Positions 11,498 through 50,182 of a DNA stretch of 64,000 nucleotides are shown here, in pieces; the stretch's first letter is position 1; each line of letters begins with the position of its first letter. A program made the translations under genes and the position numbers. The notes under the pieces were generated by a model. The model had not been told where the DNA came from, searched no databases, and saw only the letters and a list, made by a program, of their open reading frames with translations. The DNA comes from a virus: positions 15,205 to 79,204 of IMG/VR virus record IMGVR_UViG_3300032163_000008; one strand, 5' to 3'.

Positions 11498-11505
11498 TAT
11501 AATTA
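11498..11505 (+). promoter_or_regulatory. TATAATTA putative late promoter
   Basis: Begins 12 nt before ATG 11510; no SD. Confidence 0.55.
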
Positions 11506-34900: not shown

Positions 34901-37900
34901 AAGGACTTCAGAGTAAATACAACGATGTTCACTGTGGCATATGCTACAGGCAACACTCATGTAGACGGAACTTTTAGCGTAAAAGGTATAACTGATCTCA
35001 CAGACGATCTGAGAGTAGCTACAACAAAGTTCACAGTAGCTTCAGCAACAGGTAATACCGTTATAGCGGGTACATTGGATGTAGCCAAGGACTTCAAAGT
35101 AAACACAACGATGTTTACAGTGGCCAATGCTACTGGTAACACACACATTGCTGGAACATTGAATGTAGTAGGGCTATCCACACAAAACGGAGGCATATCA
35201 GTAACTAGTGCCACAGGAGTACAAGTCGCTCAAGTAATGGGTGATAGCTATGCTCTTGGAGGTGTAGGTAATAGCCTTGTAATGACAGACACTCAAACCA
35301 ACGCCTTGATGGGTGTTCAAGTAGACATGGGTGCTTCAAGCCTAGTTCACCACGCATTTCAAGCAAGGGGCTCAAATAACTCAGCAGCCGTTGCCTTCTG
35401 TGCAGACATGCAGACAGGATTTACCGGGATGCTGTACCACGGCATGGTTAACTCAGTCAATAAGTTTATAGTAGACTATCAAGGCAACACGACAATCGCA
35501 GGTACTCTAGGCGTAACAGGCATAACAGATCTATCTGGAAACTTTAGAATATCTACAGATAGATTTACTGTGGCAGCTGCCACAGGTGACACGATTATAA
35601 AAGGAACTCTAGATGTAACTGGAGCCTTGACTCTAGCAGGGTTATCTACTCTAACAGGTGGAATAAGTATAACAACTGCCACAGGAACCCAAATAACTCA
35701 GGTAATGAGTAATAGCTACGCTTTGAATGGAGTAGGAACAAGTATTTCTATGGGAAATACGCAAGTTAATCCTCTAATAGGATTAGTTGTGGATATGGGG
35801 TCTTCAGCGATTGCACACGATGCCTTCAAGGCTAGAGGGTCTAACGCAGCTGCAGCTGATGCCTTTATGGCGGAAATGCAAACAGGCTTTACTGGTAACC
35901 TATTCCATGGTACACTAAACTCAGTCGATAAGTTCGTAGTAGACTATCAAGGTAACACAAATATTGCTGGGACTTTAAATGTAGTAGGGTTATCCACTCA
36001 AAATGGTGGTATCTCTGTAACTAATGCCACTGGAACTCAAGTAGTTCAGGTAATGAGTAATAGTTTTGCATCGGGGGGTATAGGTCAATCCGTAACGGTT
36101 GGTAATACTCAAACCAACGCCCTAATAGGTAACCAGGTAGATTTAGGATCTTCCACAGTTACACACAGTGCCTTCGTAGTAAAGGGATCAAACACAGCAG
36201 TAGCCAATGCATTCTATGCGAATATGCAGACAGGTTATACTGGAAACTACTTCTTGGGTGTACTGAACGCCGTAGAGAAGTTTAAAGTAGACTACCAAGG
36301 TAATGTTACTATTGCTGGAACAATCGCAGTTACGGGACATACAACTTTCGAGGGGGTTACTTCTACAGGCGCAACTGGTACTGGAAAGCTGGTATATGAC
36401 ACAGCTCCTTCCTTCTCTTCAACAATTAATGTGGTAGGGTTATCTACTCAAAATGGTGGAATAAGTATTACTAACGCCACTGGAACTCAAGTAGTTCAAG
36501 TAATGAGCAATGCTTACGCTTCTGGTGGTATTGGAAATAGCATAACACTAGGTAATACACAGTCAAACGCCCTAATAGGTGTTCAAGTAGATTTAGGATC
36601 TTCAGCAGTAGCACATAGCGCTTTCACAGCTAAAGGATCAAATGCCACAACTGCAAACGCGTTCTACGCAAATATGCAGACGGGCTTCGCCGGAAGCTTA
36701 TTCAATGGTGGAGTAAATGGCGTTAATAAGTTTAATGTGGACTACTTAGGAAATGTATCCAATGTAGGTACTCTAATGACTACAGGAATTATTTCAGGGG
36801 CAGCTGGGGCACCTGCAAACGTAGCAGTAACTTCTCGGTATGTTGGAAATTCCACAGACCTCAATACAGCTCTAGCTAATCTAGATGATTCTGAGTTTTA
36901 TAAGGTTATGTCAGGGTTCGCTCAATGGGGAGTTGAAGCTGGATATTATTCTATAGCTTCTGGGTTCTTTACTCTTCTTAAGAGTGGTTTTGGTTTTATT
37001 AAGGGTAAAAAGGTATCTTGGGCAGCCAACCAAGTAACGTCAGCAATCCTACCAGCCCATACGGCTGGATGGCTCTACATCGACAGTTCAGGAATACTAC
37101 TGCAAACACCATCAGTTGGGTCCATATACACAGATGCAATTCCTTTGTTTTACTACTGGTTTGACGGAACCAATTATTTTGTAGAAAAAGAAAATCATCC
37201 CTACTCCTTCCACACAGCTACAGCCACATTCTTCCACCGCACAATCAATGTTATTGTTCGAGGATCAGGAGTAGTAATTTCCAGAGTAGGTTCTGGTACA
37301 GGAACCCTCGCTGCTGATAGGCAGATACAAACAAACGGTGTGGATTCCATAGATGACCACGGTCTATCAACAGCAGTTCCACTTACTAATCCGGTATCTT
37401 GGATAGTTGTTAATACTAACAGCTCTGCACAGTGGGTGCAAAATATCACAGCTACAGAGCTTCCAATTAAATACAACAATGGAGGCACTCCTACAGCGCT
37501 AGACGCTGTTAATGCTTACGCAGTATATACTCTGTATGCTTTACAAGATGACCTAGCCACAGCCACACCGAGGTTTATGGCAGTTATGGATACACAGGTA
37601 TTCACGACGCTGCTCGCAGCTCAACAAGCAGTTGCCAACGGCGCTGTCGCGGTTGCCGCGGGTGAAGTAGAAACAATCGAGCCATGTCAATTAGGTTATG
37701 CAATTGTAGCATACAGCGCAACTGGTGGGTATGTTGCAGATTATGCCGTGGCAAGAAACACATTTAATCAGTCCTTAGTTGGTGGTGGTGCCGGTAGCTC
37801 ACAAGATCATGCTTTCTTAACGGGTCTAGATTATGCAAGTGCGGGTCACACAGGGTTCACAAGTCCAGCTTCCGTGGATGTGTTCACAAATAAGACGTTT

Positions 37901-38614
37901 GACACGGCCGCAACAGGCAACGTATTTAAAGTTAATGCAAATCAGATAAATGCGTACACCGGTACAGGTGCGACAGTAGTACTATCAGCAAGTCCAACCC
38001 TTACAGGAAGTCCTCTAGCACCTACTCAGACAGCACTGGATAATTCAACGAAGATTGCCACTACGGCTTACGTTGATTCAGCAGTTAGTGTAGAGAACCT
38101 CTGGGATCGCGCAAGTACCACAGTAACATTACGCAACTCAGGAGATACTTTAAACCTCAGTGGCGACCTACAGATCGCAACAAATAAAGCAGTAATTGCA
38201 GCGGCTACAGGAAATATAACGAATGCGGGTAACATTACAACGGCAGGCATGATATATGGTCCAGCAGGCTTAACTTACTCAAGAAAAATGACTGGTCAGG
38301 TTAATGGAACAATAAATATTGCTACTATTGGTGCTGCTGACGCAGCATATAGTGGTCTTATCACAGTACAAGCCTGGAAGGCTGGTAAGGCAGTCTCTCA
38401 AACATACAGCGTTGAGGGCAGATATGACGATGGTGGTAATATCACTCAATTAGGATCTATCAACAGAACCAGTGAAACTTGTGTACTTAACATCACAGGA
38501 ACATCGACTAATGTAAAAACACTCAGTGTTACAATTGCTGGTTTTGATGCAGCTTTCGTATTAACCGTTGGAGCTCAGTTATTTGGCGATGGCATTGTAG
38601 CCACAAACCTATAA
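31937..38614 (+). CDS. Giant (2225 aa) repeat-rich fibre protein
   Basis: Five (N)ST/SNK[VI]ATTAYVD...WDR units; 14 tandem 28/34-aa F.V..ATGNT.IAGTL units; four longer GLS...GGIS.T.ATG.Q units. Confidence 0.85.
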   Translation: MVQKLTPPILSADEIAAIKNAVNPSGANPFSTGTDVTTIAENLTGTTADSFDIKKNGPAGVKLKNSSGDVQFRNLGDTEFASIEAKNVTVHGTLFADGASVDLEVATLEVKDKNISVNKNGGGAAAPGAGFTVLGNGNSALAGIFYDPTTASLFTAGDASAPVELVNINASQVLTNKTYNGVLANVTATTQAQNDNSTKVATTAYVDSAVAPESMWDRAGGVITPHTAGDTLSILGDVELANNKFIIRTATGNASLTGILTATGGFVGNLTGNVTGLVKTGSSLENGVTASTQSQNDNSTKIATTAYVDAAIAPENMWDRSGTIISSRTAGDSLYVDGNFKVNTTKFVVDPITGNTTQEGTATAISFIGPLTGNVTGNLTGILQAGSSIAGTVTAVTQAPLNNSTKIATTAYVDAALSGESFWDRAGNTITSLVPTDNLSIGGNIVISNTGTLTAGTNFVTNSAGTLTKVDFIAQKYSSIGKDITSIDHNVSPEAVLVLGKSSYFASTDSYFRIDSVANARILELDHLGALRSTGNKFILDTTTGNITTTGTVVANNISATLTAGSYLADGVMSTTQPVGDGSNKVATTAYVDNARYVVDEIWDRDPTLQRVYLHNWGDTIELSGLITFNQLTLIDDTPVNLRNGNSTVYSGADGYLDFHATIGFRYNTSLITIDAVTGDTFITGKLDIGDSFTVATTKFMVDSATGNTTIAGTLDVAKDVAVAVDKFNIDYLTGDTLIAGTLGVTGITDLTSDLRVATTKFTVASATGNTVIAGTLDVAKDLKVNTNMFTVANATGNTIIAGTLDVAKDFKVNTNVFTVAYATGNTYIDGTLNVHGITDLDKDLRVNTNMFTVDSVTGNTLVAGTLNATGSFKVNTNMFTVDSANGDTLIAGTLGVTGITDLTDDLRIATTKFTVAAATGNTVVAGTLDVAKDLKVNTNMFTVDNTNGNTLVAGTLNVTKSLYVNTNMFTIDSTNGNTAIAGTLDIAKDFRVNTTMFTVAYATGNTHVDGTFSVKGITDLTDDLRVATTKFTVASATGNTVIAGTLDVAKDFKVNTTMFTVANATGNTHIAGTLNVVGLSTQNGGISVTSATGVQVAQVMGDSYALGGVGNSLVMTDTQTNALMGVQVDMGASSLVHHAFQARGSNNSAAVAFCADMQTGFTGMLYHGMVNSVNKFIVDYQGNTTIAGTLGVTGITDLSGNFRISTDRFTVAAATGDTIIKGTLDVTGALTLAGLSTLTGGISITTATGTQITQVMSNSYALNGVGTSISMGNTQVNPLIGLVVDMGSSAIAHDAFKARGSNAAAADAFMAEMQTGFTGNLFHGTLNSVDKFVVDYQGNTNIAGTLNVVGLSTQNGGISVTNATGTQVVQVMSNSFASGGIGQSVTVGNTQTNALIGNQVDLGSSTVTHSAFVVKGSNTAVANAFYANMQTGYTGNYFLGVLNAVEKFKVDYQGNVTIAGTIAVTGHTTFEGVTSTGATGTGKLVYDTAPSFSSTINVVGLSTQNGGISITNATGTQVVQVMSNAYASGGIGNSITLGNTQSNALIGVQVDLGSSAVAHSAFTAKGSNATTANAFYANMQTGFAGSLFNGGVNGVNKFNVDYLGNVSNVGTLMTTGIISGAAGAPANVAVTSRYVGNSTDLNTALANLDDSEFYKVMSGFAQWGVEAGYYSIASGFFTLLKSGFGFIKGKKVSWAANQVTSAILPAHTAGWLYIDSSGILLQTPSVGSIYTDAIPLFYYWFDGTNYFVEKENHPYSFHTATATFFHRTINVIVRGSGVVISRVGSGTGTLAADRQIQTNGVDSIDDHGLSTAVPLTNPVSWIVVNTNSSAQWVQNITATELPIKYNNGGTPTALDAVNAYAVYTLYALQDDLATATPRFMAVMDTQVFTTLLAAQQAVANGAVAVAAGEVETIEPCQLGYAIVAYSATGGYVADYAVARNTFNQSLVGGGAGSSQDHAFLTGLDYASAGHTGFTSPASVDVFTNKTFDTAATGNVFKVNANQINAYTGTGATVVLSASPTLTGSPLAPTQTALDNSTKIATTAYVDSAVSVENLWDRASTTVTLRNSGDTLNLSGDLQIATNKAVIAAATGNITNAGNITTAGMIYGPAGLTYSRKMTGQVNGTINIATIGAADAAYSGLITVQAWKAGKAVSQTYSVEGRYDDGGNITQLGSINRTSETCVLNITGTSTNVKTLSVTIAGFDAAFVLTVGAQLFGDGIVATNL
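33950..35165 (+). repeat. Tandem coding repeat, 14 units of 84/102 bp
   Basis: Seen in the translation; includes an identical 53-bp segment at 34196-34248 and 35006-35058. Confidence 0.85.
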
Positions 38615-38632: not shown

Positions 38633-41600
38633 ATGACAGGTAGTCGCTATAACAGTAATGTATATGAGAGCTGGACTTTAAGCAAAGACGCGGGGGGAAG
38701 TGACCTAGCAGGGTTACTCTTAGGTACTGGTGCAGCAACTAATGACACAAATCTATATAGAAGCGCAATAGGTACTCTAAAGACTGACGGCATTTTCACA
38801 GTTGGTGGAGCACTCAATGCCAATAGCACTCTAACCGTTGCAAGCACTCTAACAACTACAGGCTTTACAACTGGCTCTGTACATTTTACTGGAGCAGCTG
38901 CTGCCTTAACGCAAGACGCTACTAACTTCTTTTGGGATAACACAGACAAAAGACTGGGTATTGGAACGAATGCTCCAAGTGCAATTATTCACTCATACAC
39001 GACAGGAGCCATAGATCAGCTATGGGTTGAGCGTTATGGTGGTAGTGCAGCTACTAGAGGTAAGTTAAGGATCTGGCACTCTAATATTGGCTATAGTGGT
39101 GGTACTGGTGCAGATACGCTTCACACTGCCGATTGGGGACATGCTTTTCAGGTAAACAACCAATCTGCAGCAGCCTACGCCATGACTATTACGAATGGTG
39201 GACTTGTTGGTATTGGTACCACAGGACCATCTAACCTACTGACAGTACAAAACGTCTTAAACAGTGCTTCAGCGATTGCAGTATTACAACAGAATCAAGC
39301 GAGTACATCCAATCCTCTGGCACGACTAGATTTACTAGGAGTCTCAGGAACAGGATCTGCTGGTGGTGTTATATATCTTACTGAAGGTACTTATCCCACA
39401 TATATTAAAGGCATCAGAGATGCGTCTCTAACAAAATCAAAGCTTATATTTGGAACAAATAATGGTGGTGGAAACACAGTAACCGACTGGATGACTCTAA
39501 ACAGTGTTGGTGAGTTAATACTAACCAGCACCTCAGTGTCGAGCTCTACAGCAACGGGTACTTTAATTCTCAGTGGTGGTGCCGGTATCGCTGGTGCAGT
39601 ATATATTGGTGGAGCATTAAATGTAACAGGAAATATAACAGGAACCCTAGCCACAGCAGCCCAACCGAATATTACGAGTGTGGGTACACTAAGTGCTCTT
39701 ACAGTTACTGCAACGATCACAGGAAGCGTTAGTGGATCTGCGGCAACGGTTACAGGAGCTTCTCAAACAGCTATTACAACTCTATCAAATCTTGTATCAG
39801 TGGGAGTAATTACAACAGGTACTTGGCGCGGTACAGTCGTAGAATCGGTCTATGGTGGTACTGGCGTAAATAACGGTGGTAGAACTCTAACGATTGCAAC
39901 ACAGAGTGGTACTCTAACATTCACAGGAGCATCTCTAACTATTGGTGCTAGCGCATCAGTAGCTGGCTCAAATACCGGCGATGTAACTCTAGCTACGAAT
40001 CATGGCCTATCATTAACTAATCAAGTAATTGGAATGGGAACTCCTAGCACAGTTACAAGCGCTACGACAAATAGCGTTACAACTACAACACATACCCACG
40101 CCCTAACGGTTACGAAGTCAGATGTAGGATTGGGCAGCGTGGAAAATACAGCACTATCTACTTGGGCAGGCACTGGAAATATCACCACAGTAGGTACAAT
40201 TACATCTGGTACTTGGACAGGTGGTGTAATAGGTGCGACTTATGGTGGTACAGGTATAAACAACGGTGCTAGAACTCTAACCATTAGTACTAATGCTGGT
40301 ACGCTATCTTTCACGAACGCAAGTACAACGCTGACTATAGGTACTGCAGCAGCTTCAGTTAGCAACGCTAACACAGGTGATGTAACTCTAGCTACGAATC
40401 ATGGTCTATCACTAACTAATCAAGTAATTGGAATGGGCACACCGTCCACAGTGACAAGTGCCACAACAAATGCTGTAACAACTACAACACACAGCCACGC
40501 TCTAACAGTTACTAAGTCTGATGTAGGCTTGAGCGCCGTGGAAAATACAGCACTGTCCACATGGGCAGGTACTGGGAATATTACCACAGTAGGTACAATT
40601 ACATCTGGGTCATGGACTAGCGGCGTAATAGCCTCTAACTATGGTGGTACTGGCGTAAATAACGCAGGTAGAACCCTAACTCTTAATACAAATTCGGGTA
40701 CACTAGCATATTCTAGTGCAAGTTTAACTCTAACAGTTGCAGCGAATGCTACCGTTAGTGGATCAAACACAGGGGATCAAACAACTATAACAGGTAATGC
40801 TGGATCAGCAACATACGCGTCAAATACAACCATCACAGATGATACAACAACGGCAGCTACAATGTATCCTACATGGGTTACAGCTAATACTGGAAACATA
40901 CCTCAAAAGGTATCTAGTACGAAGCTTAGCTTCGTGCCTAGCACGGGAATTTTAAGTGCTACGGGCTTTGCAGGACCTCTGACAGGAAATGTAACAGGTA
41001 ACGTCAGTGGATCGGCTGGATCGGTGACTTGGGCTAACGTGTCAAGTAAGCCTTTTAACTATAGTGGCCAAGCTGGGCAACCGTCATGGTTATGGGGTAC
41101 AAGCGACGGAGTTGCATACTATGTGTGGAACCCTAGTAACTTTAATGTAAATTCCGCAACTACGGCTACTAACGCCACTAATGCCACATATCTAAATGTC
41201 GCAGATACCAGAGATACAGCACTTACTCCAAACAGTATGATCGCAAATAAGGTGCAGTCAGCTTTCACAAATATGAATGGTGGAGGTTGGAGATCTTTCT
41301 TAAACATACAGGGTTGGTCAAGTGGTTATGCTTCTTGGAGAATTATAGGGCCAGCAAATGCAAGTAATGATGACTTATGGTATCTACAGGGTGGCGTAAA
41401 TACTACTTGGGGTACTCAACACACAATCATGCACAGCGGTAACATTGGGTCATATGCACCAACTCTAACGGGTGGTGGTGCCAGTGGTAACTGGGGCATC
41501 AATGTAACAGGAACAGCGGCGTCTACTACGAGATTCTTCTCTACGAGTCACCCTACATCATACTATCTAGAGCATACTTGGGATGGCACGTATTGGTATA

Positions 41601-42061
41601 TTAATGGTAACCATCCTACTAATCCTGGTGCCAGAGTTGCACGTGCCGATACAGCCGGGTCAGCTACAACTGCTGGATCTGTCACTAACTCTCTAACAGC
41701 AGGAACAGGACTATCCGGTACAGCCTTTAATGGTAGTGCAGCACAGACTTGGAATCATGCTAGCGGTAACGGATATAATCATATTCCGACGGGTGGTCAA
41801 TCTACATATGTTCTGACGTGGGCATCTAGTGGTGCAGCGACATGGGCAGCACCTACAGGTGGAGGTTCTAGTGGATGGACTTATTACAGAGACTCTAGTG
41901 GTATAAATGCTACGGCACCCGTCATTAGAACGAATGCGCAGCAAATTGATGCAAACATAACGATGCTAGCCACAGAGAATGGTTTATCAGCAGGACCCAT
42001 TACTATTAGCAGTGGTGTTACTGTCACTATTCCAAGTGGGGCTTCTTGGTCTATTGTCTAA
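38633..42061 (+). CDS. Long fibre protein
   Basis: LGIGT..P units, GGTG repeats, TTTTH[TS]HA; C-terminal SAGPITISSGVTVTIPSGASWSIV. Confidence 0.8.
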   Translation: MTGSRYNSNVYESWTLSKDAGGSDLAGLLLGTGAATNDTNLYRSAIGTLKTDGIFTVGGALNANSTLTVASTLTTTGFTTGSVHFTGAAAALTQDATNFFWDNTDKRLGIGTNAPSAIIHSYTTGAIDQLWVERYGGSAATRGKLRIWHSNIGYSGGTGADTLHTADWGHAFQVNNQSAAAYAMTITNGGLVGIGTTGPSNLLTVQNVLNSASAIAVLQQNQASTSNPLARLDLLGVSGTGSAGGVIYLTEGTYPTYIKGIRDASLTKSKLIFGTNNGGGNTVTDWMTLNSVGELILTSTSVSSSTATGTLILSGGAGIAGAVYIGGALNVTGNITGTLATAAQPNITSVGTLSALTVTATITGSVSGSAATVTGASQTAITTLSNLVSVGVITTGTWRGTVVESVYGGTGVNNGGRTLTIATQSGTLTFTGASLTIGASASVAGSNTGDVTLATNHGLSLTNQVIGMGTPSTVTSATTNSVTTTTHTHALTVTKSDVGLGSVENTALSTWAGTGNITTVGTITSGTWTGGVIGATYGGTGINNGARTLTISTNAGTLSFTNASTTLTIGTAAASVSNANTGDVTLATNHGLSLTNQVIGMGTPSTVTSATTNAVTTTTHSHALTVTKSDVGLSAVENTALSTWAGTGNITTVGTITSGSWTSGVIASNYGGTGVNNAGRTLTLNTNSGTLAYSSASLTLTVAANATVSGSNTGDQTTITGNAGSATYASNTTITDDTTTAATMYPTWVTANTGNIPQKVSSTKLSFVPSTGILSATGFAGPLTGNVTGNVSGSAGSVTWANVSSKPFNYSGQAGQPSWLWGTSDGVAYYVWNPSNFNVNSATTATNATNATYLNVADTRDTALTPNSMIANKVQSAFTNMNGGGWRSFLNIQGWSSGYASWRIIGPANASNDDLWYLQGGVNTTWGTQHTIMHSGNIGSYAPTLTGGGASGNWGINVTGTAASTTRFFSTSHPTSYYLEHTWDGTYWYINGNHPTNPGARVARADTAGSATTAGSVTNSLTAGTGLSGTAFNGSAAQTWNHASGNGYNHIPTGGQSTYVLTWASSGAATWAAPTGGGSSGWTYYRDSSGINATAPVIRTNAQQIDANITMLATENGLSAGPITISSGVTVTIPSGASWSIV

Positions 42062-42071
42062 GGAGTGATGT

Positions 42072-42470
42072 ATGAAATTAAATGTTAACACCATTAAAGG
42101 CATAACAGCAGCCACCCCAACATTTAAAAACGCTCTTGGGGCGGAGTTAGGTCAGCCCTGCAAGGCTTTTATCGCCTTCAACGGATCTACAGGGGTGGTT
42201 AATTCCAACTTTAACATGCCATCAATCACAAAAGATGGCACAGGAAACTATAGGGCAAATATAACTCCAGGGACTTTCGCCACTGCAACATTCTCTATAG
42301 CAGGGACGTCTGTTATGCTCCCAACTTCGACTTTTAACCCACACAGGAGAGGCCTAGGAGTAGGAGCCATATCGACATCAGTAGTCTACTGTAGTACAGG
42401 GTATGTGACAGAAAGTGCGAGTACTTATGAAGATATGATGGTCAGCGTTGTCCTATTTGGACACGGATAA
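42072..42470 (+). CDS. Fibre-tip-associated paralogue 1
   Basis: CKAFIAFNG...FN..SIT..GTG.Y; FNPHRRG; YEDM. Confidence 0.7.
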   Translation: MKLNVNTIKGITAATPTFKNALGAELGQPCKAFIAFNGSTGVVNSNFNMPSITKDGTGNYRANITPGTFATATFSIAGTSVMLPTSTFNPHRRGLGVGAISTSVVYCSTGYVTESASTYEDMMVSVVLFGHG

Positions 42471-42474
42471 TATA

Positions 42475-42864
42475 ATGAGCACATTGGCAACAGATAGTAT
42501 CTATAGCGTACAGAACACAGTTCCTCCAGTGTTTAGGAACTCTACAGGAGCCGAGATTGGGAAGCTATGCAAGGCTTGGATATACTTTGATGGGGTTGCT
42601 CTAGGTATGGTAGCCTTCAACGTATCTTCAGTTACTAAGGATGGAACTGGTATGTACAGAATAAATATACCAGTGGGAATATTTGCAGATGCTAATTACG
42701 CTATAATGGGCTGTAATAGTGCGAGTGGCACATATAACCCTCATAGAAAGGGAATCGGTTTTGCGGCTCAATCGGCTACACAGCTTCCCTGCAATTCTGG
42801 GTATGTAACAGAAAATGCTACAGCCTATGAGGATCATCCCATGCATGTTCAGATGTGGTCATAA
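42475..42864 (+). CDS. Fibre-tip-associated paralogue 2
   Basis: CKAWIYFDG...FNVSSVT..GTG.Y; YNPHRKG; likely ATG 42475. Confidence 0.7.
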   Translation: MSTLATDSIYSVQNTVPPVFRNSTGAEIGKLCKAWIYFDGVALGMVAFNVSSVTKDGTGMYRINIPVGIFADANYAIMGCNSASGTYNPHRKGIGFAAQSATQLPCNSGYVTENATAYEDHPMHVQMWS

Positions 42865-42873
42865 GGAGATAGT

Positions 42874-43275
42874 ATGCCAGTAAATGTACAAACAATTCAG
42901 AGTCTAACGACAGCTCCTCCAGCGATTACAAACTCTTCTGATGTTGTAAAGGGTAAGTTATGCAAGGCTTGGGTGAACTATAACGCAATAGGAACCGTGC
43001 CCGTTCCTATCAGGGCTTCTTTTAATATTCCTTCAATCACTAGAAATGGTGTGGGTGGGTATATGATTAATATTACTCCTGGTGTTCTTGCAGACACTAA
43101 TTTCTGTCTCATCGGAAGTCAGACATACCCTCAAGGTGCATATGATCCTCATAGAAACGGCACGGGATTATCAATTCAGTCATCAACACTAGTATACCAA
43201 TCGATGTCTTGGGTATCTGAGGGTTCAAGTGGTTTTGAAGATATGACCCAGGGTTGTATTCAGATATATACTTAA
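42874..43275 (+). CDS. Fibre-tip-associated paralogue 3
   Basis: CKAWVNYN...SFNIPSIT..G.G.Y; YDPHRNG; FEDM. Confidence 0.7.
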   Translation: MPVNVQTIQSLTTAPPAITNSSDVVKGKLCKAWVNYNAIGTVPVPIRASFNIPSITRNGVGGYMINITPGVLADTNFCLIGSQTYPQGAYDPHRNGTGLSIQSSTLVYQSMSWVSEGSSGFEDMTQGCIQIYT

Positions 43276-43764: not shown

Positions 43765-44265
43765 ATGGTATCTACAATATCAGCAGTTGATTTGAATTTT
43801 ACTGGGAACATTACAGTAGCTGGAAACACAGTTATATCAGGAAACATGTCTGCTGCAGGCACAATATATGCCAACTACGCCGACTTAGCGGAGTATTTTG
43901 ATGTTAAAAAGGACGTCGTCCTGAAGCCTGGGGATCCCACGTCCATTGCAGGCCTTCGTACACTCACAACCTACAATGGAAAGAACTACGCAGGAATAAT
44001 TAGTACAGAGCCAGGAGTAATGCTAGGTAGGAGTCGCACTCAAGCCATAGCCCTAGCCCTAGCTGGCACGGTGCCTGTAAGAACTTCTGACACAAGCATA
44101 AAAATTGGGGACACCCTAGTATTAACAAAAAAGGGTAAGATTATTCGAAAGCGTTTTTGGAGCTTATTTTTGACTGTGGTAGGGATAGCGCAAGAGAAAT
44201 ACAAGAAGACCTCGTTTGGTCCCAACGGCAGTAGTGAGACTCTTTTGAATTGTTTATTAGATTAA
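43765..44265 (+). CDS. Stand-alone intramolecular-chaperone-like (ADLAEYF) protein 1
   Basis: YADLAEYF, AGIIST.PG, ALAGTVPV, IGD.LV, VGIAQE. Confidence 0.65.
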   Translation: MVSTISAVDLNFTGNITVAGNTVISGNMSAAGTIYANYADLAEYFDVKKDVVLKPGDPTSIAGLRTLTTYNGKNYAGIISTEPGVMLGRSRTQAIALALAGTVPVRTSDTSIKIGDTLVLTKKGKIIRKRFWSLFLTVVGIAQEKYKKTSFGPNGSSETLLNCLLD

Positions 44266-44274
44266 GGGGTATAG

Positions 44275-44637
44275 ATGACTTTTTCATTCGTTGATATTTC
44301 TGGATGCACCTCTGACACTAATAACGGGTTTAACGGCTCTGACTTTAAATATAAGATCGCACTATTCGCAGAGCTACTAGACACAATTCTCAATATACTA
44401 GATGTACCTAGCGCCTCAGTGTCGCTGGCTATCGGAAACGATGATCCTAGTACACTTGAGGCATTCGCAGTAGAACTAGAGAAGGGTCTCATAACTCTGC
44501 ATAATAGAATAATAGGTACACAATGGACACCCAAGGAAATGACTTATGAAGAGCGTCTCAATATGTGTCTGGTGCTCTCAGTGTCAATGCTCGACAATAA
44601 TTTAGATGGAGACAATAATGGTATCAACCCTAAATAG
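44275..44637 (+). CDS. Hypothetical protein sharing an N-terminal motif with the Cys-rich protein at 45492
   Basis: MTFSFVDISGCTSDTNNGFN. Confidence 0.6.
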   Translation: MTFSFVDISGCTSDTNNGFNGSDFKYKIALFAELLDTILNILDVPSASVSLAIGNDDPSTLEAFAVELEKGLITLHNRIIGTQWTPKEMTYEERLNMCLVLSVSMLDNNLDGDNNGINPK

Positions 44638-45043
44638 TAATATTGAGATAACGGGGAACTTAACTGCTGGAGGCACGGTAAGGGGAACCTATTCGGATCT
44701 AGCAGAATACTTTCTTGTGGAGGGCTCAATTCTGTGCGGAAACCCTACATCTATAGTAGGCTTTCGAAAAGTTGGGAAGTACAGTGGAAGAGCCTATGCA
44801 GGTATCAGAAGCTTTAGGCCAGCTATGTCGATGGGTGGAGACATTAGTAAGAGCAGCATTCCAATAGCCCTCAGTGGGTCCGTAAAGGTTAACACTAGAG
44901 ACCGAAGCATCAAATTAGGAGACAAATTAGTAGTTACAAAGCAAGGTACGGTTATCCGTAAGAGATGGTATCATTTGGGTTTACCTCTTGTTGGAGTGGC
45001 ACAAGAGGATTATAGGAAGAACTCCGTAATGACTTTGGTATAA
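44618..45043 (+). CDS. Stand-alone ADLAEYF protein 2
   Basis: YSDLAEYF; likely ATG 44618 after GGAG. Confidence 0.65.
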   Translation: MVSTLNSNIEITGNLTAGGTVRGTYSDLAEYFLVEGSILCGNPTSIVGFRKVGKYSGRAYAGIRSFRPAMSMGGDISKSSIPIALSGSVKVNTRDRSIKLGDKLVVTKQGTVIRKRWYHLGLPLVGVAQEDYRKNSVMTLV

Positions 45044-45046
45044 TTA
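45039..45046 (+). promoter_or_regulatory. TATAATTA motif overlapping stop codon
   Basis: Exact octamer upstream of the 45059-48203 block. Confidence 0.45.
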
Positions 45047-45058
45047 AAGGAGAATAAT

Positions 45059-45490
45059 ATGACATCAACTCTAACAGCAGCAGACTTATATATTTCAGGA
45101 AATGTTACCGCTGGTGGTACTGTGCAGGCCAACTACGCGGATCTAGCAGAGTATTTCCTTACTAAAGATACAATTGCTTGCGGTGACCCCGTTTCAATCA
45201 CTGACTTGCGTACGGTAGGAAAATATAACGGAAAATCCTATGCAGGGGTGAGAAGCACTATCCCCGGTTTTTCTATGGGCGGTGAGATGGGCGGAGGTAT
45301 TCCAGTTGCCCTAATCGGCTCTGTTCCAGTTAACACTAGAGATCAAAGCATCAGGATTGGAGATAAGTTAGTTTTAACTAGAAGTGGAAAAATTGTAAAA
45401 AAGAGATGGTTTCACGTGTTCACTCAGTATGTGGGAATTTCTCAAGACGCATATAAGGACGGCCAAGTAATGTGCCTATTAGGGGTGTAG
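45059..45490 (+). CDS. Stand-alone ADLAEYF protein 3
   Basis: YADLAEYF; AAGGAG SD. Confidence 0.65.
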   Translation: MTSTLTAADLYISGNVTAGGTVQANYADLAEYFLTKDTIACGDPVSITDLRTVGKYNGKSYAGVRSTIPGFSMGGEMGGGIPVALIGSVPVNTRDQSIRIGDKLVLTRSGKIVKKRWFHVFTQYVGISQDAYKDGQVMCLLGV

Positions 45491-45491
45491 C

Positions 45492-46034
45492 ATGGCATTT
45501 ACATACACAAATGGGTCAGGGTGTAATGCCAACACATCGAACACGTATAACAGCACGATACTTCCAACTAAGGGCTACATAAGAGCAGCTCATACAAACG
45601 AGCTGAGAAAGGCTCTTGAAGACTTCTACGCACAACATCAAGTAACTGCTCCAACATGGGCTGACACACCTACAGGAATGCCTGCTGGAACTCTAGTTAG
45701 AAACCCAGATATTAACGAACTAAGAACAGCTGTCAATAAAATACGACAGCTGGTATATCGATGCACTTGTGATTCAAACGGGTGTTGCGTCTGTCATAAT
45801 ACTGGAGGTTGCTGGATGGGAAGTACTTGCGTCTCCCAGTACTTTTATAACTACTCTTCTACTATGGCATTATACACATTCAGTAATGAAACCGGAGACA
45901 CCTCAGGGGCAGGTACACGAGTGACAACGAATGCAGTTGATAAGAAGTTTATAAACCAGATCAGGAATGCCATAGATGCGCCAAACTCTAATACAGCTCC
46001 CGCTTACTGGCAGAACTACAACCAGGCTTTCTAA
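45492..46034 (+). CDS. Cys-cluster protein, putative virion protein and rSAM substrate
   Basis: CTCDSNGCCVCHNTGGCWMGSTC flanked by three NELR.A / NQIR.A helices. Confidence 0.7.
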   Translation: MAFTYTNGSGCNANTSNTYNSTILPTKGYIRAAHTNELRKALEDFYAQHQVTAPTWADTPTGMPAGTLVRNPDINELRTAVNKIRQLVYRCTCDSNGCCVCHNTGGCWMGSTCVSQYFYNYSSTMALYTFSNETGDTSGAGTRVTTNAVDKKFINQIRNAIDAPNSNTAPAYWQNYNQAF

Positions 46035-47494
46035 TGAGAACTATTAATTTTATAACAACTAACAGCTGCAACGCTAACTGTTCCTTCTGTTTTGAGCAAC
46101 ATAAAAGGGATTTTAAAGCAGTAGCTATTTCAAATGAGGTCGTCGACAAGACTCTCGAGTACTTCTTCAACTTATGGGGGAATACTGACATAATTTCCAT
46201 AGACCTCTTTGGCGGAGAGCCCACTCTTGCAGAGGACACCTGCGTGTACACAGTTAATCGCGCAACCGAGATGGCTCGGGAGTATCGGATTAGTCTGAGA
46301 TTCTTATTATTCACCAACTGCTTTGTATTTCCTGAGAAGCTAGTAGAGGTACTCTTAGAGTCAAAAGCACTGGTTACAATACAGATATCTAATGAGGGTG
46401 TTGACAATCATCTTAAGGATCATAACAACACCACTCTTAGGGAAAAAATTCATAGTAACATCGAGAGGTACGTTGCAACGAAGCTTCCCGTTATTGTGAG
46501 AGCAACCATGAGTAGTGAGAGTCTAACTACTGCAGAAAACCTCCTAGAATCTGTGAAGCTAATGGTCTCTCTGGGATTAGATTCCTTCTACTTCTTTCCT
46601 ATTATGGAGCATGGATGGCAGGAGCACCACTTTAAAGTTTGGCGAGATGGCTTCCACCTAATCGCGGACTACTTATTCGAGTTACATAGTAAGAGCCCAG
46701 AGATACCCTTTAATGTTGGTAACTTTCTTCACGAAGTAACTGAGGAGATCCCCCCAATGTGCGCAGCAGGAGAGGACTATGTGTCAGTTAATACCGATGG
46801 TGAGGTGTATGCCTGTCAACGATTCTTGCCTATAGCCACAAACACACCACAGTCTATGGGGAGCGTGTTTACTGGAGTGGATTTAAAGCTTATTGGAGAA
46901 ATAGGTGCCCATGAGGGCTGCAGAGAGTGTAGGGTAAAAAACTGCAAGATCTGCCCAGCAGTATCTTATGTGGCTCAAGACGACAGGATCGTGATAGGTA
47001 GGGGAGACTACTGCAGAATTCGGCTGATAATGTGGGACGAATACATGTACTACACAGAAAAGATGCAATCTATAGGGCAATATAACCTTCCAACTTCTGA
47101 GCAGCTTGAAGAATTGGATTTAGTGCAATACATCGAAACAATGTTCTATAAGCTGTTTAATGTACCTAACCAGGATGCTGAGTCAGGTTACAACATATAC
47201 AACACTAGGACTTCATACATGACTAATATTATCCGATACTTCCTGAGGATGTCTAGAGTGTTTATAGACCTTACTGAGGGAGAGCTTGGGCTAGACACAT
47301 CTCTTACTGATGAGAGCCAGATACTGACCTACCTGATAAAATTTATCGAGAGCATTCTCTTTGAGATATACAATACAAACCCTCAGGTAACATACATATA
47401 CCACGACAATGCTACGAGTCTAACTAGTCTCTCAGCGATGCTAGTGCTATTACTCGAGGAGAAAGGCCAACGCTATGACAGAAACAATATATAA
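46034..47494 (+). CDS. Radical SAM enzyme with SPASM domain and helical C-terminal extension
   Basis: CNANCSFC, FGGEP, CAAG...DGEVYACQRF, CRECRVKNCKICPA...YC. Confidence 0.92.
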   Translation: MRTINFITTNSCNANCSFCFEQHKRDFKAVAISNEVVDKTLEYFFNLWGNTDIISIDLFGGEPTLAEDTCVYTVNRATEMAREYRISLRFLLFTNCFVFPEKLVEVLLESKALVTIQISNEGVDNHLKDHNNTTLREKIHSNIERYVATKLPVIVRATMSSESLTTAENLLESVKLMVSLGLDSFYFFPIMEHGWQEHHFKVWRDGFHLIADYLFELHSKSPEIPFNVGNFLHEVTEEIPPMCAAGEDYVSVNTDGEVYACQRFLPIATNTPQSMGSVFTGVDLKLIGEIGAHEGCRECRVKNCKICPAVSYVAQDDRIVIGRGDYCRIRLIMWDEYMYYTEKMQSIGQYNLPTSEQLEELDLVQYIETMFYKLFNVPNQDAESGYNIYNTRTSYMTNIIRYFLRMSRVFIDLTEGELGLDTSLTDESQILTYLIKFIESILFEIYNTNPQVTYIYHDNATSLTSLSAMLVLLLEEKGQRYDRNNI

Positions 47495-48203
47495 AGTAGA
47501 TGACAACGAACTTCTTAAAAAGGTTTACAGCAACGTAAAATTAGCACATAGAGACATATACAATACTACGATTGCGTATCTAAGTGACTCGCAATTTCAG
47601 TACATATTCGATCTAGTGGTATCCGTAGGAGATCTCAAGAAATCATACGTGGTTGTAGTCAATAACGAAGCCAATATTCAAAAGCTTAAGAACTTTCTTG
47701 TGTCAAAAGGAGTTCCCAGTAGCTTCATATTTAGGCAATATGATGCAGCAATAGTATATGTCTTGAGAATGGTTATAACGGATGGGGTAGTTAGTGGGAT
47801 AGAACCAGTGTATCTACAAGGGCACCTACCCGATGGATTTACTCTTGAGTATCTGTCAACTTTCACACCAGACATTCACCCACCTTTTGAAGGTGTTGCT
47901 TGGGTAGAGGGTGATGATACCTTCGGATACCAGTTCACAAACACAGCTTTCTTTGACTCTGTTCAAGCCAGCCATGGTACAGTATATGATAAATTCATGG
48001 CCACGTATCCCGGACTAGACCTGACGAGACTCTACGGAGTACTGGATGCAGGCGTCCTTAAGTTCTATTATTACACAGCTTATAGAGAGCCTACCGACAT
48101 ATCAAATGGGTATTACACGAAGGCAGTTTATGATGAGACCACCGACGCTTTTATTATTCACGAATATACCGGGTATTATAACGAGAAAAAAGTCATAGGC
48201 TAG
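47475..48203 (+). CDS. Hypothetical protein overlapping the rSAM gene
   Basis: 242-aa ORF with 20-nt overlap. Confidence 0.65.
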   Translation: MTETIYKVDDNELLKKVYSNVKLAHRDIYNTTIAYLSDSQFQYIFDLVVSVGDLKKSYVVVVNNEANIQKLKNFLVSKGVPSSFIFRQYDAAIVYVLRMVITDGVVSGIEPVYLQGHLPDGFTLEYLSTFTPDIHPPFEGVAWVEGDDTFGYQFTNTAFFDSVQASHGTVYDKFMATYPGLDLTRLYGVLDAGVLKFYYYTAYREPTDISNGYYTKAVYDETTDAFIIHEYTGYYNEKKVIG

Positions 48204-48216
48204 CAGCACTTACTCC

Positions 48217-48224
48217 TATAATTA
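48217..48224 (+). promoter_or_regulatory. TATAATTA putative late promoter
   Basis: Exact octamer in the intergenic region. Confidence 0.6.
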
Positions 48225-48258: not shown

Positions 48259-49056
48259 ATGGCATCGGTATTTACGTGGTTTTGGGGGGTTCTTCTAACT
48301 CTTGCGTCTCATGCCCCTGCCATACTCATATTACTACTATTTTTAGCGCTCGTTATTGCGAGCTTTTATGCCTATCACACTCTATTCGTAGCTCCTGCTT
48401 TCACGGCCACACTCAGGACTATCCAGGATAAATTCCTACTAGGGATCTCCCAAGTAACTGGTGGAATTGAGTCAGTAGAAAACACGGTAAAGGCTTATAA
48501 AGATAACGAGGACATAAAGCACAATCAAATAGAGACTAAGATGGAAGAGATTCATGTGGGTATACGTGCTAATAATGAGCAGTTACTAATTATAAAGGAT
48601 GACATGAACACGTACAAAATAGTTAACCACGAGGTGCTTAGTGATGAGTTGGATAAGATAGGCGCGGTGGTATACTACTCCTCAACAGCCGCTACAAACA
48701 TTTTATCAGAGGCCCTTATCAGCTTCAGAGATCATCCAGAGAGAGTAGTCATAAGTAACGACCAGTTACTCCATGACATTACAAAGGATGTTCAGAAGGA
48801 TCGATTAAAATATCACACACAGCTGGTAACCCAAGGGGTATCTCCTAGAACTGTACAGTTATGGGAAGAGACCGAGGGGGAAATGTTCGAGAGATTTGCT
48901 TTTTGGATAATACAGTTCTACGAGAGATTCCAGACAATGAGGGGTAATGGCACGGTTACCGAGCTTATCAAGACGGAAGCAAACACATTAAAGGATAGAT
49001 TCTTTAGGGAATTTATGACGACCTTTAAGGGTAAGCTCTCGATCATAAAATCTTAA
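48259..49056 (+). CDS. N-terminally membrane-anchored coiled-coil protein (possibly lysis-related)
   Basis: Hydrophobic N-terminus; AGGAG SD. Confidence 0.6.
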   Translation: MASVFTWFWGVLLTLASHAPAILILLLFLALVIASFYAYHTLFVAPAFTATLRTIQDKFLLGISQVTGGIESVENTVKAYKDNEDIKHNQIETKMEEIHVGIRANNEQLLIIKDDMNTYKIVNHEVLSDELDKIGAVVYYSSTAATNILSEALISFRDHPERVVISNDQLLHDITKDVQKDRLKYHTQLVTQGVSPRTVQLWEETEGEMFERFAFWIIQFYERFQTMRGNGTVTELIKTEANTLKDRFFREFMTTFKGKLSIIKS

Positions 49057-49073
49057 TATAGAGGTATATTGGA

Positions 49074-49760
49074 ATGGTTTTAGGCATAGTAAATTTAGTG
49101 CTTCTTGTTCTCTTAACGGGGATGTTCGCGTACTTTCTAAAAGTGTTCAACAAAAACAACGTCAAAGTTAAAGACTGCGTGGATGGCGTACAGAAGACTC
49201 TAGTAAATCATATCAGGGATGAGGAGGGAGCCTTCTCTGCAGTTACAAAAACTCTAGTAGGACTGGTTAATCAAACCAATACTCTTCACGGCAAGGTAGA
49301 AGAGTTCAGCGCCGCCCTCGCTGCCGCCTTTATCAAAAAGGCTGACGTGTATGAGGAAGAGTGGGCTGAAGTTAAGGAGAGGCTTTTCGCAACTGCTGAT
49401 GAGGCTTTTAATGGAGCTCTGGCAGCATGCGGTAATTGTGTGGGAAAATGTGGCTTCGTTGATAGGTTCCTGGAGATTGTAGCTAAGAGAAGAGCCGAGT
49501 CTTTCCGCATCTGGGAAGTAGAGGCTATTCCTCAAGCCGTATTAAAGGTGGTAGAGCAGATAGATAAAGAGCTATACCCTAGAGTAATAGATATATACCT
49601 TCCCGATATTCTCAGCATCTGTGTAGACCGCAGAGCTGGTCTTGAAAAACGCAAAGCATTAGTACAAGAAAAGGTACTAAAGTATAAAGAGCAAGTGAAG
49701 ATGGATTGGGAAGAGGCTATTCTAAAACGGCTACACTTCCAAGACGCCCCTAAGCTTTAA
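49074..49760 (+). CDS. N-terminally membrane-anchored helical protein
   Basis: Single TM; CGNCVGKC motif. Confidence 0.6.
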   Translation: MVLGIVNLVLLVLLTGMFAYFLKVFNKNNVKVKDCVDGVQKTLVNHIRDEEGAFSAVTKTLVGLVNQTNTLHGKVEEFSAALAAAFIKKADVYEEEWAEVKERLFATADEAFNGALAACGNCVGKCGFVDRFLEIVAKRRAESFRIWEVEAIPQAVLKVVEQIDKELYPRVIDIYLPDILSICVDRRAGLEKRKALVQEKVLKYKEQVKMDWEEAILKRLHFQDAPKL

Positions 49761-49783: not shown

Positions 49784-50182
49784 ATGACGCTAGAGGAATT
49801 CGTTGAGCGAAGAGTGTTTTTATATGATACGGATAGCACAGGCATTGTTTATCACTCCAGATATTTGGAATGGTTTGAGGAGGTTAGGCTGGTATTACTT
49901 GAGCGAGAGTATAAGCCAATGCTTAGGATGATCTCAGAGGATCACATCACGTTCGTTCCCGTTGAATGTGATCTTCAGTTCAAGCGTCCGACGATGTTTG
50001 AGGATCGTGTTACTATAGAAGTAAAGGTGAAAGCAGCTAGTAAGATAGCTATTGACACAAAATATACGATCATTAAAGAAGGAAAAGTAGCAGTTACAGC
50101 GAGCATGAAACTTGTATGTGTCAGCACCAAAACAGGCCGACCAGTTAAGATTCCTGCACCGTTAATGAATATTCTGAAGTAG
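49784..50182 (+). CDS. YbgC/FadM (4HBT-like) hotdog acyl-CoA thioesterase
   Basis: DTDSTGIVYHSRYLEWFEEVR ... LVCVS...GRPVKIP. Confidence 0.88.
   Translation: MTLEEFVERRVFLYDTDSTGIVYHSRYLEWFEEVRLVLLEREYKPMLRMISEDHITFVPVECDLQFKRPTMFEDRVTIEVKVKAASKIAIDTKYTIIKEGKVAVTASMKLVCVSTKTGRPVKIPAPLMNILK

Follow-up and report, generated by a model that had tools for sequence, protein, structure and literature searches.

What does a radical S-adenosylmethionine (rSAM) enzyme do at the end of a phage fibre gene cluster? The question is raised by the right-hand 64 kb (hereafter the window) of a 79-kb IMG/VR viral contig (G000, 79.2 kb), which derives from a sediment myovirus with genes for a major head protein, protease and tail sheath. 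Here a gene with the motifs of an rSAM/SPASM enzyme follows, and overlaps, a 180-residue open reading frame (ORF180) whose product contains a dense cluster of cysteines. Thioether formation by rSAM/SPASM enzymes is known chiefly from short peptides that are made on ribosomes and modified after translation (RiPPs), and the few protein-sized substrates are QhpC and, as of 2026, CrpA. The initial annotation of the locus proposed that RiPP-like chemistry is applied to a structural protein of the phage. The proposal holds insofar as a maturase-type enzyme is indeed linked to a Cys protein, but ORF180 is no more than a candidate virion or fibre part. By analogy with the action of CrpC on CrpA, we propose that the enzyme would install thioether crosslinks in the hypervariable Cys core of ORF180, a reading to which we assign a probability of roughly 0.55.

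The enzyme lies in the thioether-forming maturase sector

The rSAM gene (46034–47494) and ORF180 (45492–46034) are both on the + strand, as are all features within them and the genes ORF120, ORF143, ORF145, ORF166 and ORF242 introduced below. Direct reading of the junction, TTCTAATGAGA, confirmed that the enzyme starts in the stop codon of ORF180, the TAA overlapping the ATG in the sequence TAATG. The CxxxCxxC motif of the enzyme (C12, C16 and C19; 46067–46090) is invariant and PF04055 is matched above its cutoff (40.7 versus 29.5 bits), and thus the protein belongs to the radical SAM superfamily. The other diagnostic motifs listed in the initial annotation are likewise present, comprising GGEP at residues 60–63 and seven SPASM-type Cys residues (C243, C261, C296, C299, C304, C307 and C327; 46760–47014), and the whole set is invariant in five orthologues. 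Membership of the SPASM group follows from the Cys pattern, C243-x12-G-x4-C261, C296-x2-C-x4-C-x2-C307 and C327, in a variant form of the canonical Cx2Cx5Cx3C spacing; with the SPASM hidden Markov model of Pfam the score is 15.3 bits, under the cutoff of 21.5.

Among the NCBIfam models PapB ranks first (NF047865, 129.3 bits, E = 1.8e-37), followed by CXXX-repeat, ScfB-like, SCIFF and other families, QhpD among them. PapB is a best match only, as membership of NF047865 requires at least 340 bits; similarly, the CXXX-repeat maturase models TIGR04115 and TIGR04119 score 91 and 34.3 bits against cutoffs of 350 and 150, and TIGR04463, the family of CrpC, scores 36.6 against 525. The ORF180 core itself contains no CXXX repeat, and some of its homologues carry CxCxxx repeats. 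The closest solved structures, CteB (E = 6.7e-19) and SkfB, are both thioether formers. An enzyme of the anSME type, or one that modifies a cofactor or nucleotide, was considered and rejected, those families scoring far below the maturase families. The enzyme is therefore of the peptide/protein maturase class, with best matches to PapB, CXXX-repeat, SCIFF and QhpD enzymes, and it does not cluster with rSAM families acting on cofactors or nucleotides. On sequence grounds it is placed in the thioether-forming sector of these maturases, outside any curated family, and it may work in the manner of the CrpC, QhpD, PapB and CteB systems while not being a member of their families.

Two features bear on how the enzyme might engage a substrate. 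The CxxxCxxC motif begins at residue 12, leaving no room for an N-terminal RiPP recognition element (RRE), and the alignment with CteB begins at residue 97 of the latter, past its RRE. At the other end, an extension of ~150 residues (residues ~335–486; 47036–47491) is a candidate substrate-docking domain that was found only in the enzyme clade described below. The extension aligns to its end in the orthologues, in a phage paralogue and in both enzymes of a bacterial metagenome-assembled genome (MAG), while other relatives drop off the profile at ~300–333. Prediction of a complex between the enzyme and ORF180 gave a score of 0.00, which is evidence neither for nor against an interaction.

ORF180 joins conserved helices to a variable Cys core

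The product of ORF180 opens with a conserved motif, M-x-F-x-[YF]-x-N-x-x-G-C-x-A-N...N (45492–45551), in which C11 and N20 are invariant. All three helix motifs noticed at the outset are present (I30-x5-NELRKA, V69-x5-NELRTA and V148-x5-INQIRNA), and in the AF2 model (pLDDT 70, pTM 0.75) they coincide with long helices at residues 32–48, 71–87 and 151–165. NELR helix 1 comprises residues 30–48 (45579–45635) and NELR helix 2, DINELRTAVNKIR, residues 69–87 (45696–45752); the latter lies directly upstream of the Cys core and is a candidate recognition element. The NELR-type helix 3, which contains INQIRNAID, spans residues 148–165 (45933–45986). The Cys core itself, modelled with short strands, occupies residues 91–113 (45762–45830) and contains C91, C93, C98, C99, C101, C107 and C113, so the 7 Cys in 23 residues claimed for it are real. 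A Tyr/Phe-rich stretch follows immediately past the core. A chance cluster is ruled out, only ~5.5e-7 segments of this kind being expected; Cys accounts on average for 0.54% of the residues in the window's 50 long ORFs, none of which, ORF180 aside, has more than 4 Cys per 23 residues.

A HMMER search of 1.8 billion representatives recovered about ten proteins with the full architecture, that is, the N-terminal motif, NELR helix 1, NELR helix 2, the Cys core, helix 3 and a C-terminal N-Q-x-F. In one of these, P0026 (1,124 aa, with a LamG domain), the architecture forms the C-terminal domain, and in P0019 it is interrupted by an insert. The helix pair alone, which has no Pfam family, recurs in other proteins, and is frequently repeated three times at the C-terminal end of a Kelch, SBBP or FN3 protein. 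Across the family the Cys core begins 4–8 residues past the INELRxAINKIR helix and holds from ~5 to 12 Cys at variable spacing, the first of them forming a CxC in 10 of 12 sequences that were compared; one MAG homologue displays tandem CxCxxx repeats rich in C-x-x-[N/D/Q/E]. A conserved helix beside a variable Cys core conforms to the logic of RiPP precursors, whereas a fixed metal site would be expected to keep its spacing.

ORF180 matched no Pfam, PHROG or NCBIfam family; its model had no Foldseek match in PDB or BFVD and a best Z of 2.6 in a wide VIA search, and the family profile gave only chance-level matches when compared with solved structures. In phage records no tblastn match to ORF180 was found, a search of viral contigs with single proteins and with the rSAM alignment returned no close relatives, and a scan of genome contigs with profile alignment A2 found nothing. 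The phage members of the family are without signal peptides. No RNA holder is on record for the window.

Enzyme and Cys-cluster protein are inherited together

In a FastTree phylogeny of 97 rSAM cores, the eight enzymes that are paired with an ORF180-type gene form one clade (SH-like support 99). Each of these eight is flanked by an NELR/Cys protein, whereas such a neighbour was found for 0 of 60 enzymes in the large clade of other rSAM relatives; homologues deprived of a Cys-rich neighbour, which the initial annotation had listed as evidence against its proposal, were thus not encountered in the clade of the window enzyme. The paired-enzyme clade consists of two subtypes, and the phage and the MAG each possess one enzyme of each. 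Type-1 substrates group in the same way as their enzymes, with weak support, and type-2 substrates are not resolved in the tree.

The phage paralogue resides on a second IMG/VR contig (G001, 85.6 kb; locus L082), where a gene for a 194-aa ORF180 homologue is followed, 11 nt on, by that of a 466-aa rSAM. The latter shares 23% identity with the window enzyme (E = 9e-22), in an alignment that reaches the C-terminal end; its best NCBIfam match is also PapB, and QhpD is again among its matches. G000 and G001 probably represent a single phage of ~172 kb split in two, which would carry two paralogous pairs, each at the end of a fibre cluster. This view is based on the following observations: the G001 homologue (P0022) is, like the proteins of the window, recorded on a contig of exactly 171,862 bp; CheckV completeness is 48% for G000 and 57% for G001, which lacks a capsid gene; GC content agrees and tetranucleotide usage is correlated (r = 0.93); and the tail module of the window is carried on by baseplate genes at the opening of G001. 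On G001 a second fibre set comprises a protein of 695 aa and a Kelch protein of 470 aa that carries a Peptidase_G2 domain; behind it lies the paralogous pair.

Three further orthologue pairs are on recorded contigs of equal size, P0002/P0011 (22,687 bp), P0003/P0015 (5,785 bp) and P0005/P0014 (26,439 bp). The module is also found outside phages. A contig from a Ca. Marinamargulisbacteria MAG (L088/L091) contains two substrate/rSAM pairs, one consisting of P0016 near a 497-aa orthologue of the enzyme (38% identity, E = 1e-113), the other of a 207-aa homologue followed by a 498-aa rSAM. The same contig encodes IlvD, a glycine dehydrogenase subunit, TatC and three further rSAM genes, and these housekeeping genes indicate that it is cellular. 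P0016 has, when read by eye, a signal-peptide-like N-terminal extension, right behind which the conserved motif begins. Downstream of the MAG rSAMs lie two paralogues of no known family (L088:1923-2558 and L088:10834-12096; 24% identity over 195 aa, E = 2e-6), possibly a fourth component of the module that is absent from the phage or replaced there by ORF242. Conserved linkage and shared descent thus lend good support to an enzyme–substrate relationship; the joint inheritance of the pair, in phages as well as in a bacterium, makes crosslinking of ORF180 the most likely role of the enzyme.

A Peptidase_G2 gene is the conserved upstream partner

The initial annotation overlooked the gene immediately upstream, ORF143 (45059–45490), whose stop codon, as read directly, ends 1 nt ahead of the ORF180 start. 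Its product consists of a short beta-strand stub and an ADLAEYF domain of Peptidase_G2 type, identified by homology to ORF166, ORF145 and a 217-aa MAG protein. ORF166 (43765–44265) and ORF145 (44606–45043) are free-standing Peptidase_G2-domain paralogues, the former recognized by PF11962 (26.3 bits; cutoff 25 bits) and the latter by paralogy. The MAG protein matches PF11962 with 34.4 bits. ORF143 has no direct match to PF11962 and is 53–54% identical to ORF166 and ORF145 and 39% identical to the MAG protein (E = 1e-25), the three window proteins being 49–54% identical to one another. The AF2 model of ORF143 is poor (pLDDT 30.6), and the domain was identified through Pfam instead. As judged from these similarities, the ADLAEYF domain of ORF143, ORF145 and ORF166 is the Peptidase_G2 intramolecular chaperone and putative autocleavage domain. 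In three of the four pairs that were read as DNA such a gene lies directly upstream of the substrate gene, being ORF143 itself in the window, the C-terminus of the 470-aa Kelch-type protein in G001 and the 217-aa protein, which has a signal peptide, in the MAG. The exception is the MAG pair of P0016, upstream of which sits a 326-aa U32-like protein. The Peptidase_G2 gene is thus the conserved upstream partner of the pair.

ORF120 (44275–44637), which sits behind a Peptidase_G2 paralogue, is the best non-family match to the ORF180 N-terminal motif model among 10,257 ORFs, although at E = 0.48 the similarity is not significant. Its product begins M-T-F-S-F...S-G-C and is otherwise unrelated to ORF180. 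On the basis of this weak likeness ORF120 is a candidate second substrate or partner; a resemblance to the C-terminal extension of the rSAM was not supported (E = 1.7).

The pair lies in a probable late unit behind the fibre genes

The block closes a fibre cluster, as first described, with large fibre genes (31937–38614 and 38633–42061) and fibre-accessory genes preceding it. It was also said to follow a sequence motif, TATAATTA, and a copy is indeed found at 45039, but this precedes ORF143 and not ORF180 directly. The motif occurs 17 times in the window against 4.2 +/- 2.3 expected, with 15 of the 17 copies on the + strand and most of them just upstream of gene starts. The fourfold enrichment holds window-wide, copies being usually 10–40 nt before starts (for example at 11498, 15812, 31893, 38610, 45039, 48217 and 54677), and TATAATTA is probably a late promoter element of this phage. 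The copy at 45039–45046 (+ strand), succeeded by AAGGAG and the ATG of ORF143, would open the unit, and the next, at 48217–48224 (+ strand), lies after ORF242 and would close it. From the positions of these two copies, ORF143, ORF180, the rSAM gene and ORF242 look like one late transcription unit extending from 45039 to 48224.

The last gene of the unit, ORF242 (47475–48203), does overlap the end of the rSAM gene, beginning 20 nt inside it behind GAGGAG. It does not count as a conserved third component. A homologue search returned only ORF242 itself, the atlas gave nothing informative, and comparison with the downstream neighbours of the MAG and G001 rSAMs disclosed no significant similarity; ORF242 is an orphan protein.

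Several neighbouring genes are recorded here in their own right. The 1,142-aa fibre protein encoded at 38633–42061 has long stretches of internal repetition in which GTG[VI]NN-GRTLT and THTHALTVTKSDVGLG blocks recur, and its N-terminal motif, LKTDGxFTVxGxLNA, recurs just before the Peptidase_G2 domain of the 217-aa MAG protein. Behind this fibre gene are three tandem paralogous ORFs of 132, 138 and 133 aa (42072–43275) that have GKLCKAW and NPHR-G-G motifs in common and only a weak PHROG tail-fibre match. Two genes past the rSAM unit, within the structural region, is a 4HBT-type thioesterase gene (49784–50182; PF13279, E = 2.4e-17), and the two intervening genes (48259–49056 and 49074–49760) encode proteins that both have predicted N-terminal membrane segments.

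NELR helices accompany rSAM genes in other phages

The association between NELR helices and rSAM genes extends beyond the clade of the window enzyme. Seven metagenome loci (L047:6054-11140, L002, L003, L004, L011, L016 and L039), one of them on an 805-kb contig, have in common a prophage-type tail gene order in which a gpJ-like 1,206-aa tail protein, a fibre-like 163-aa protein, a 241-aa protein and a 135-aa ORF are followed by three overlapping rSAM/SPASM genes. The 241-aa protein possesses three TDP...HIDELR repeats and 17 Cys, and all three enzymes have PapB as best match, with QhpD among their matches. In the Ralstonia jumbo phage RP12 (L086, NC_041911.1:79153-90091) virion genes are followed by ORF074 and then by the rSAM genes ORF076, ORF077 and ORF079; an MgoB-like gene and ORF078 are also found at this locus. 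ORF074 matches the helix-pair model (E = 9.5e-7) and has a high content of Trp, Tyr and His; RP12 may represent a related system with a different chemistry. Neither the L047-type loci nor that of RP12 has the Peptidase_G2 domain. Thus, the NELR helix module is a common partner of rSAM genes across three phage lineages. The RP12/RP31 paper and a cyanophage paper list rSAM genes without assigning them a role, and our literature search found no description of a phage rSAM, or of RiPP modification, acting on virion or fibre proteins.

Discussion

The mechanism that we envisage has as its conserved core a Peptidase_G2 protein, a three-helix protein of ~180 residues with a Cys core, and a dedicated rSAM/SPASM enzyme. 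The enzyme would dock on ORF180 via the helix next to the core, the N-terminal motif or both, perhaps using its C-terminal extension. Cys thiols could then be activated on an auxiliary Fe-S cluster while the 5'-deoxyadenosyl radical takes a hydrogen from a nearby residue, generating intramolecular S-C (thioether) crosslinks and converting the Cys core into a rigid knot that would be independent of redox state. Thioether chemistry is suggested by the class of the enzyme together with the composition of the core. The habitat, sediment, fits both the oxygen sensitivity of such an enzyme and a crosslink unaffected by redox state. The position of the genes and the domain fusions hint, less strongly, that ORF180 may be an accessory or distal part of the tail fibre, and the observation that both phage pairs close a fibre cluster behind a Peptidase_G2 domain supports the fibre context.

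It should be emphasized, however, that several observations weigh against this interpretation. The enzyme falls far under every curated NCBIfam cutoff (129 versus 340 bits even for PapB), and so its chemistry cannot be transferred from family membership, while the core of ORF180 itself contains only two C-x-x-[D/N] motifs. RP12 ORF074 is devoid of Cys, indicating that Cys is not universal in the wider association. The co-location of the three orthologue pairs mentioned above rests only on their equal contig sizes. With respect to a place in the virion, the claim is weakened by the presence of the module in a cellular genome with a secreted-looking homologue, and the Pfam, PHROG, PDB, BFVD and VIA searches gave ORF180 no match to a structural-protein family or fold.

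It could be argued that ORF180 is crosslinked but is not a virion component, being instead a released or secreted RiPP-like product with an adhesive, metal-binding, signalling or competitor-directed function that the phage carries as cargo taken over from bacteria. The MAG, in which the module lies beside TatC and three additional rSAM genes among housekeeping genes, the signal-peptide-like extension of one MAG homologue, and the missing structural match of ORF180 would all be in keeping with this view. We nevertheless consider it rather unlikely, as the phage proteins lack signal peptides, both phage pairs end fibre clusters behind a fibre-type chaperone domain, the window unit is opened by a late-type promoter motif, and the NELR module is elsewhere fused to Kelch, LamG and beta-propeller proteins of the kind typical of fibres and adhesins.

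Other explanations dispense with Cys crosslinking of ORF180 altogether. Cys clusters often bind metals, and in the study of CrpA most of the Cys-rich proteins surveyed were predicted metal binders (PMC13692751); the cluster might thus be a metal or Fe-S site, with ORF180 an accessory of the rSAM (a redox partner, scaffold or chaperone), while some other protein, for example the Peptidase_G2 stubs, ORF120 or the large fibres, would be what the enzyme really modifies. The conservation of the Peptidase_G2 gene in the module and the trace of the N-terminal motif in ORF120 fit such a scheme, which is improbable given that Cys number and spacing vary widely across homologues, tandem CxCxxx repeats included, in a way unlike a fixed metal site, and that the wider partner of rSAM genes is the NELR protein rather than Peptidase_G2. 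A similarly small likelihood attaches to the proposition that the enzyme does modify ORF180 but at residues other than Cys, by forming C-C cyclophanes on the aromatic residues past the core or by epimerization, leaving the Cys cluster to some other role. Here RP12 ORF074, with NELR helices flanking a Cys-free region rich in Trp, Tyr and His beside three rSAM genes, may be a parallel, and the Tyr/Phe-rich stretch of ORF180 a possible target. The RP12 enzymes, however, are outside the clade of the window enzyme, on long branches; it is the Cys core that tracks this clade, and the best matches of the window enzyme are all Cys-directed thioether formers.

If the crosslinking of the ORF180 core by its neighbouring enzyme is accepted, a broader and more speculative picture can be drawn, in which a fibre-associated protein of phages receives a hypervariable Cys core knotted by thioethers, made by means of the phages' own rSAM and a self-cleaving chaperone domain, variation in the core tunes receptor binding, and the module is shared with bacteria for use on secreted proteins. 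We put this forward only tentatively and think it doubtful in its entirety. Were it true, enzymatic crosslinking of the virion's host-recognition parts would succeed where disulfides fail, within the reducing cytoplasm and in habitats free of oxygen. Should the main reading hold, that the enzyme crosslinks ORF180, it would add a covalent maturation step to host-recognition parts and make the hypervariable core a plausible site of host-range variation. ORF180 would then define a new substrate family built from three helices and an internal core instead of a leader followed by a core, and the enzyme a clade that recognizes a folded protein without the usual RRE. Within the literature searched, this would be the first case of such chemistry tied to phage fibre genes.

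The ADLAEYF domains of ORF143, ORF145, ORF166 and the Kelch-type fibre protein of G001 belong to the same family (PF11962) as the self-cleaving C-terminal autochaperone of the phi29 pre-neck appendage gp12. Unlike that of gp12, the window Peptidase_G2 domain is free-standing behind a stub of 25–37 residues and is conserved beside an rSAM/substrate pair. We know of no description of a Peptidase_G2 domain in such a linkage.

With respect to the enzyme, the chemistry of NxxcB, PapB and CteB, in which an auxiliary cluster activates the thiol, has been reviewed (PMC9389541). CteB (PDB 5WGG), the maturase of SCIFF, resembles the window enzyme in its rSAM and SPASM domains and is thioether-forming, but differs in having an N-terminal RRE of ~96 residues and in acting on a six-Cys peptide of ~45 residues. 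PapB shares the rSAM and SPASM architecture and forms beta-thioethers from Cys to acceptor residues in repeated motifs of PapA, the precursor of freyrasin; PapA, however, is a short leader-plus-core peptide, whereas the proposed substrate ORF180 is a protein of 180 residues with its core in mid-protein. QhpD (TIGR03906) resembles the present proposal in that an rSAM/SPASM enzyme links Cys to Asp or Glu in a small protein subunit with a structural role. The window enzyme scores 48 bits against the TIGR03906 cutoff of 453, and QhpC, as the gamma subunit of quinohemoprotein amine dehydrogenase, sits in a periplasmic enzyme whose QhpG and QhpE maturation steps are absent from the window.

A further parallel is provided by CrpC, which was demonstrated experimentally to install ranthionine thioether links on CrpA, a 28.8-kDa protein of Methanococcus voltae (PMC13692751, 2026). 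There are clear differences between the two systems: CrpC is a member of TIGR04463 with an N-terminal RRE, while the window enzyme lacks this element and has a C-terminal extension; CrpA belongs to another substrate family, while ORF180 has NELR helices and a short core; and the host of CrpC and CrpA is archaeal, while the window pair lies in a phage fibre cluster. The same study named a C-X-X-Q/D motif as suggestive of rSAM thioether formation and reported that CrpB shares the N-terminal region of CrpA (PMC13692751), which may have a counterpart in the likeness of ORF120 to ORF180. In both instances, however, a SPASM rSAM is encoded beside a Cys-rich protein rather than a short peptide, and CrpA, like ORF180, consists of a conserved N-terminal part followed by a Cys-rich core.

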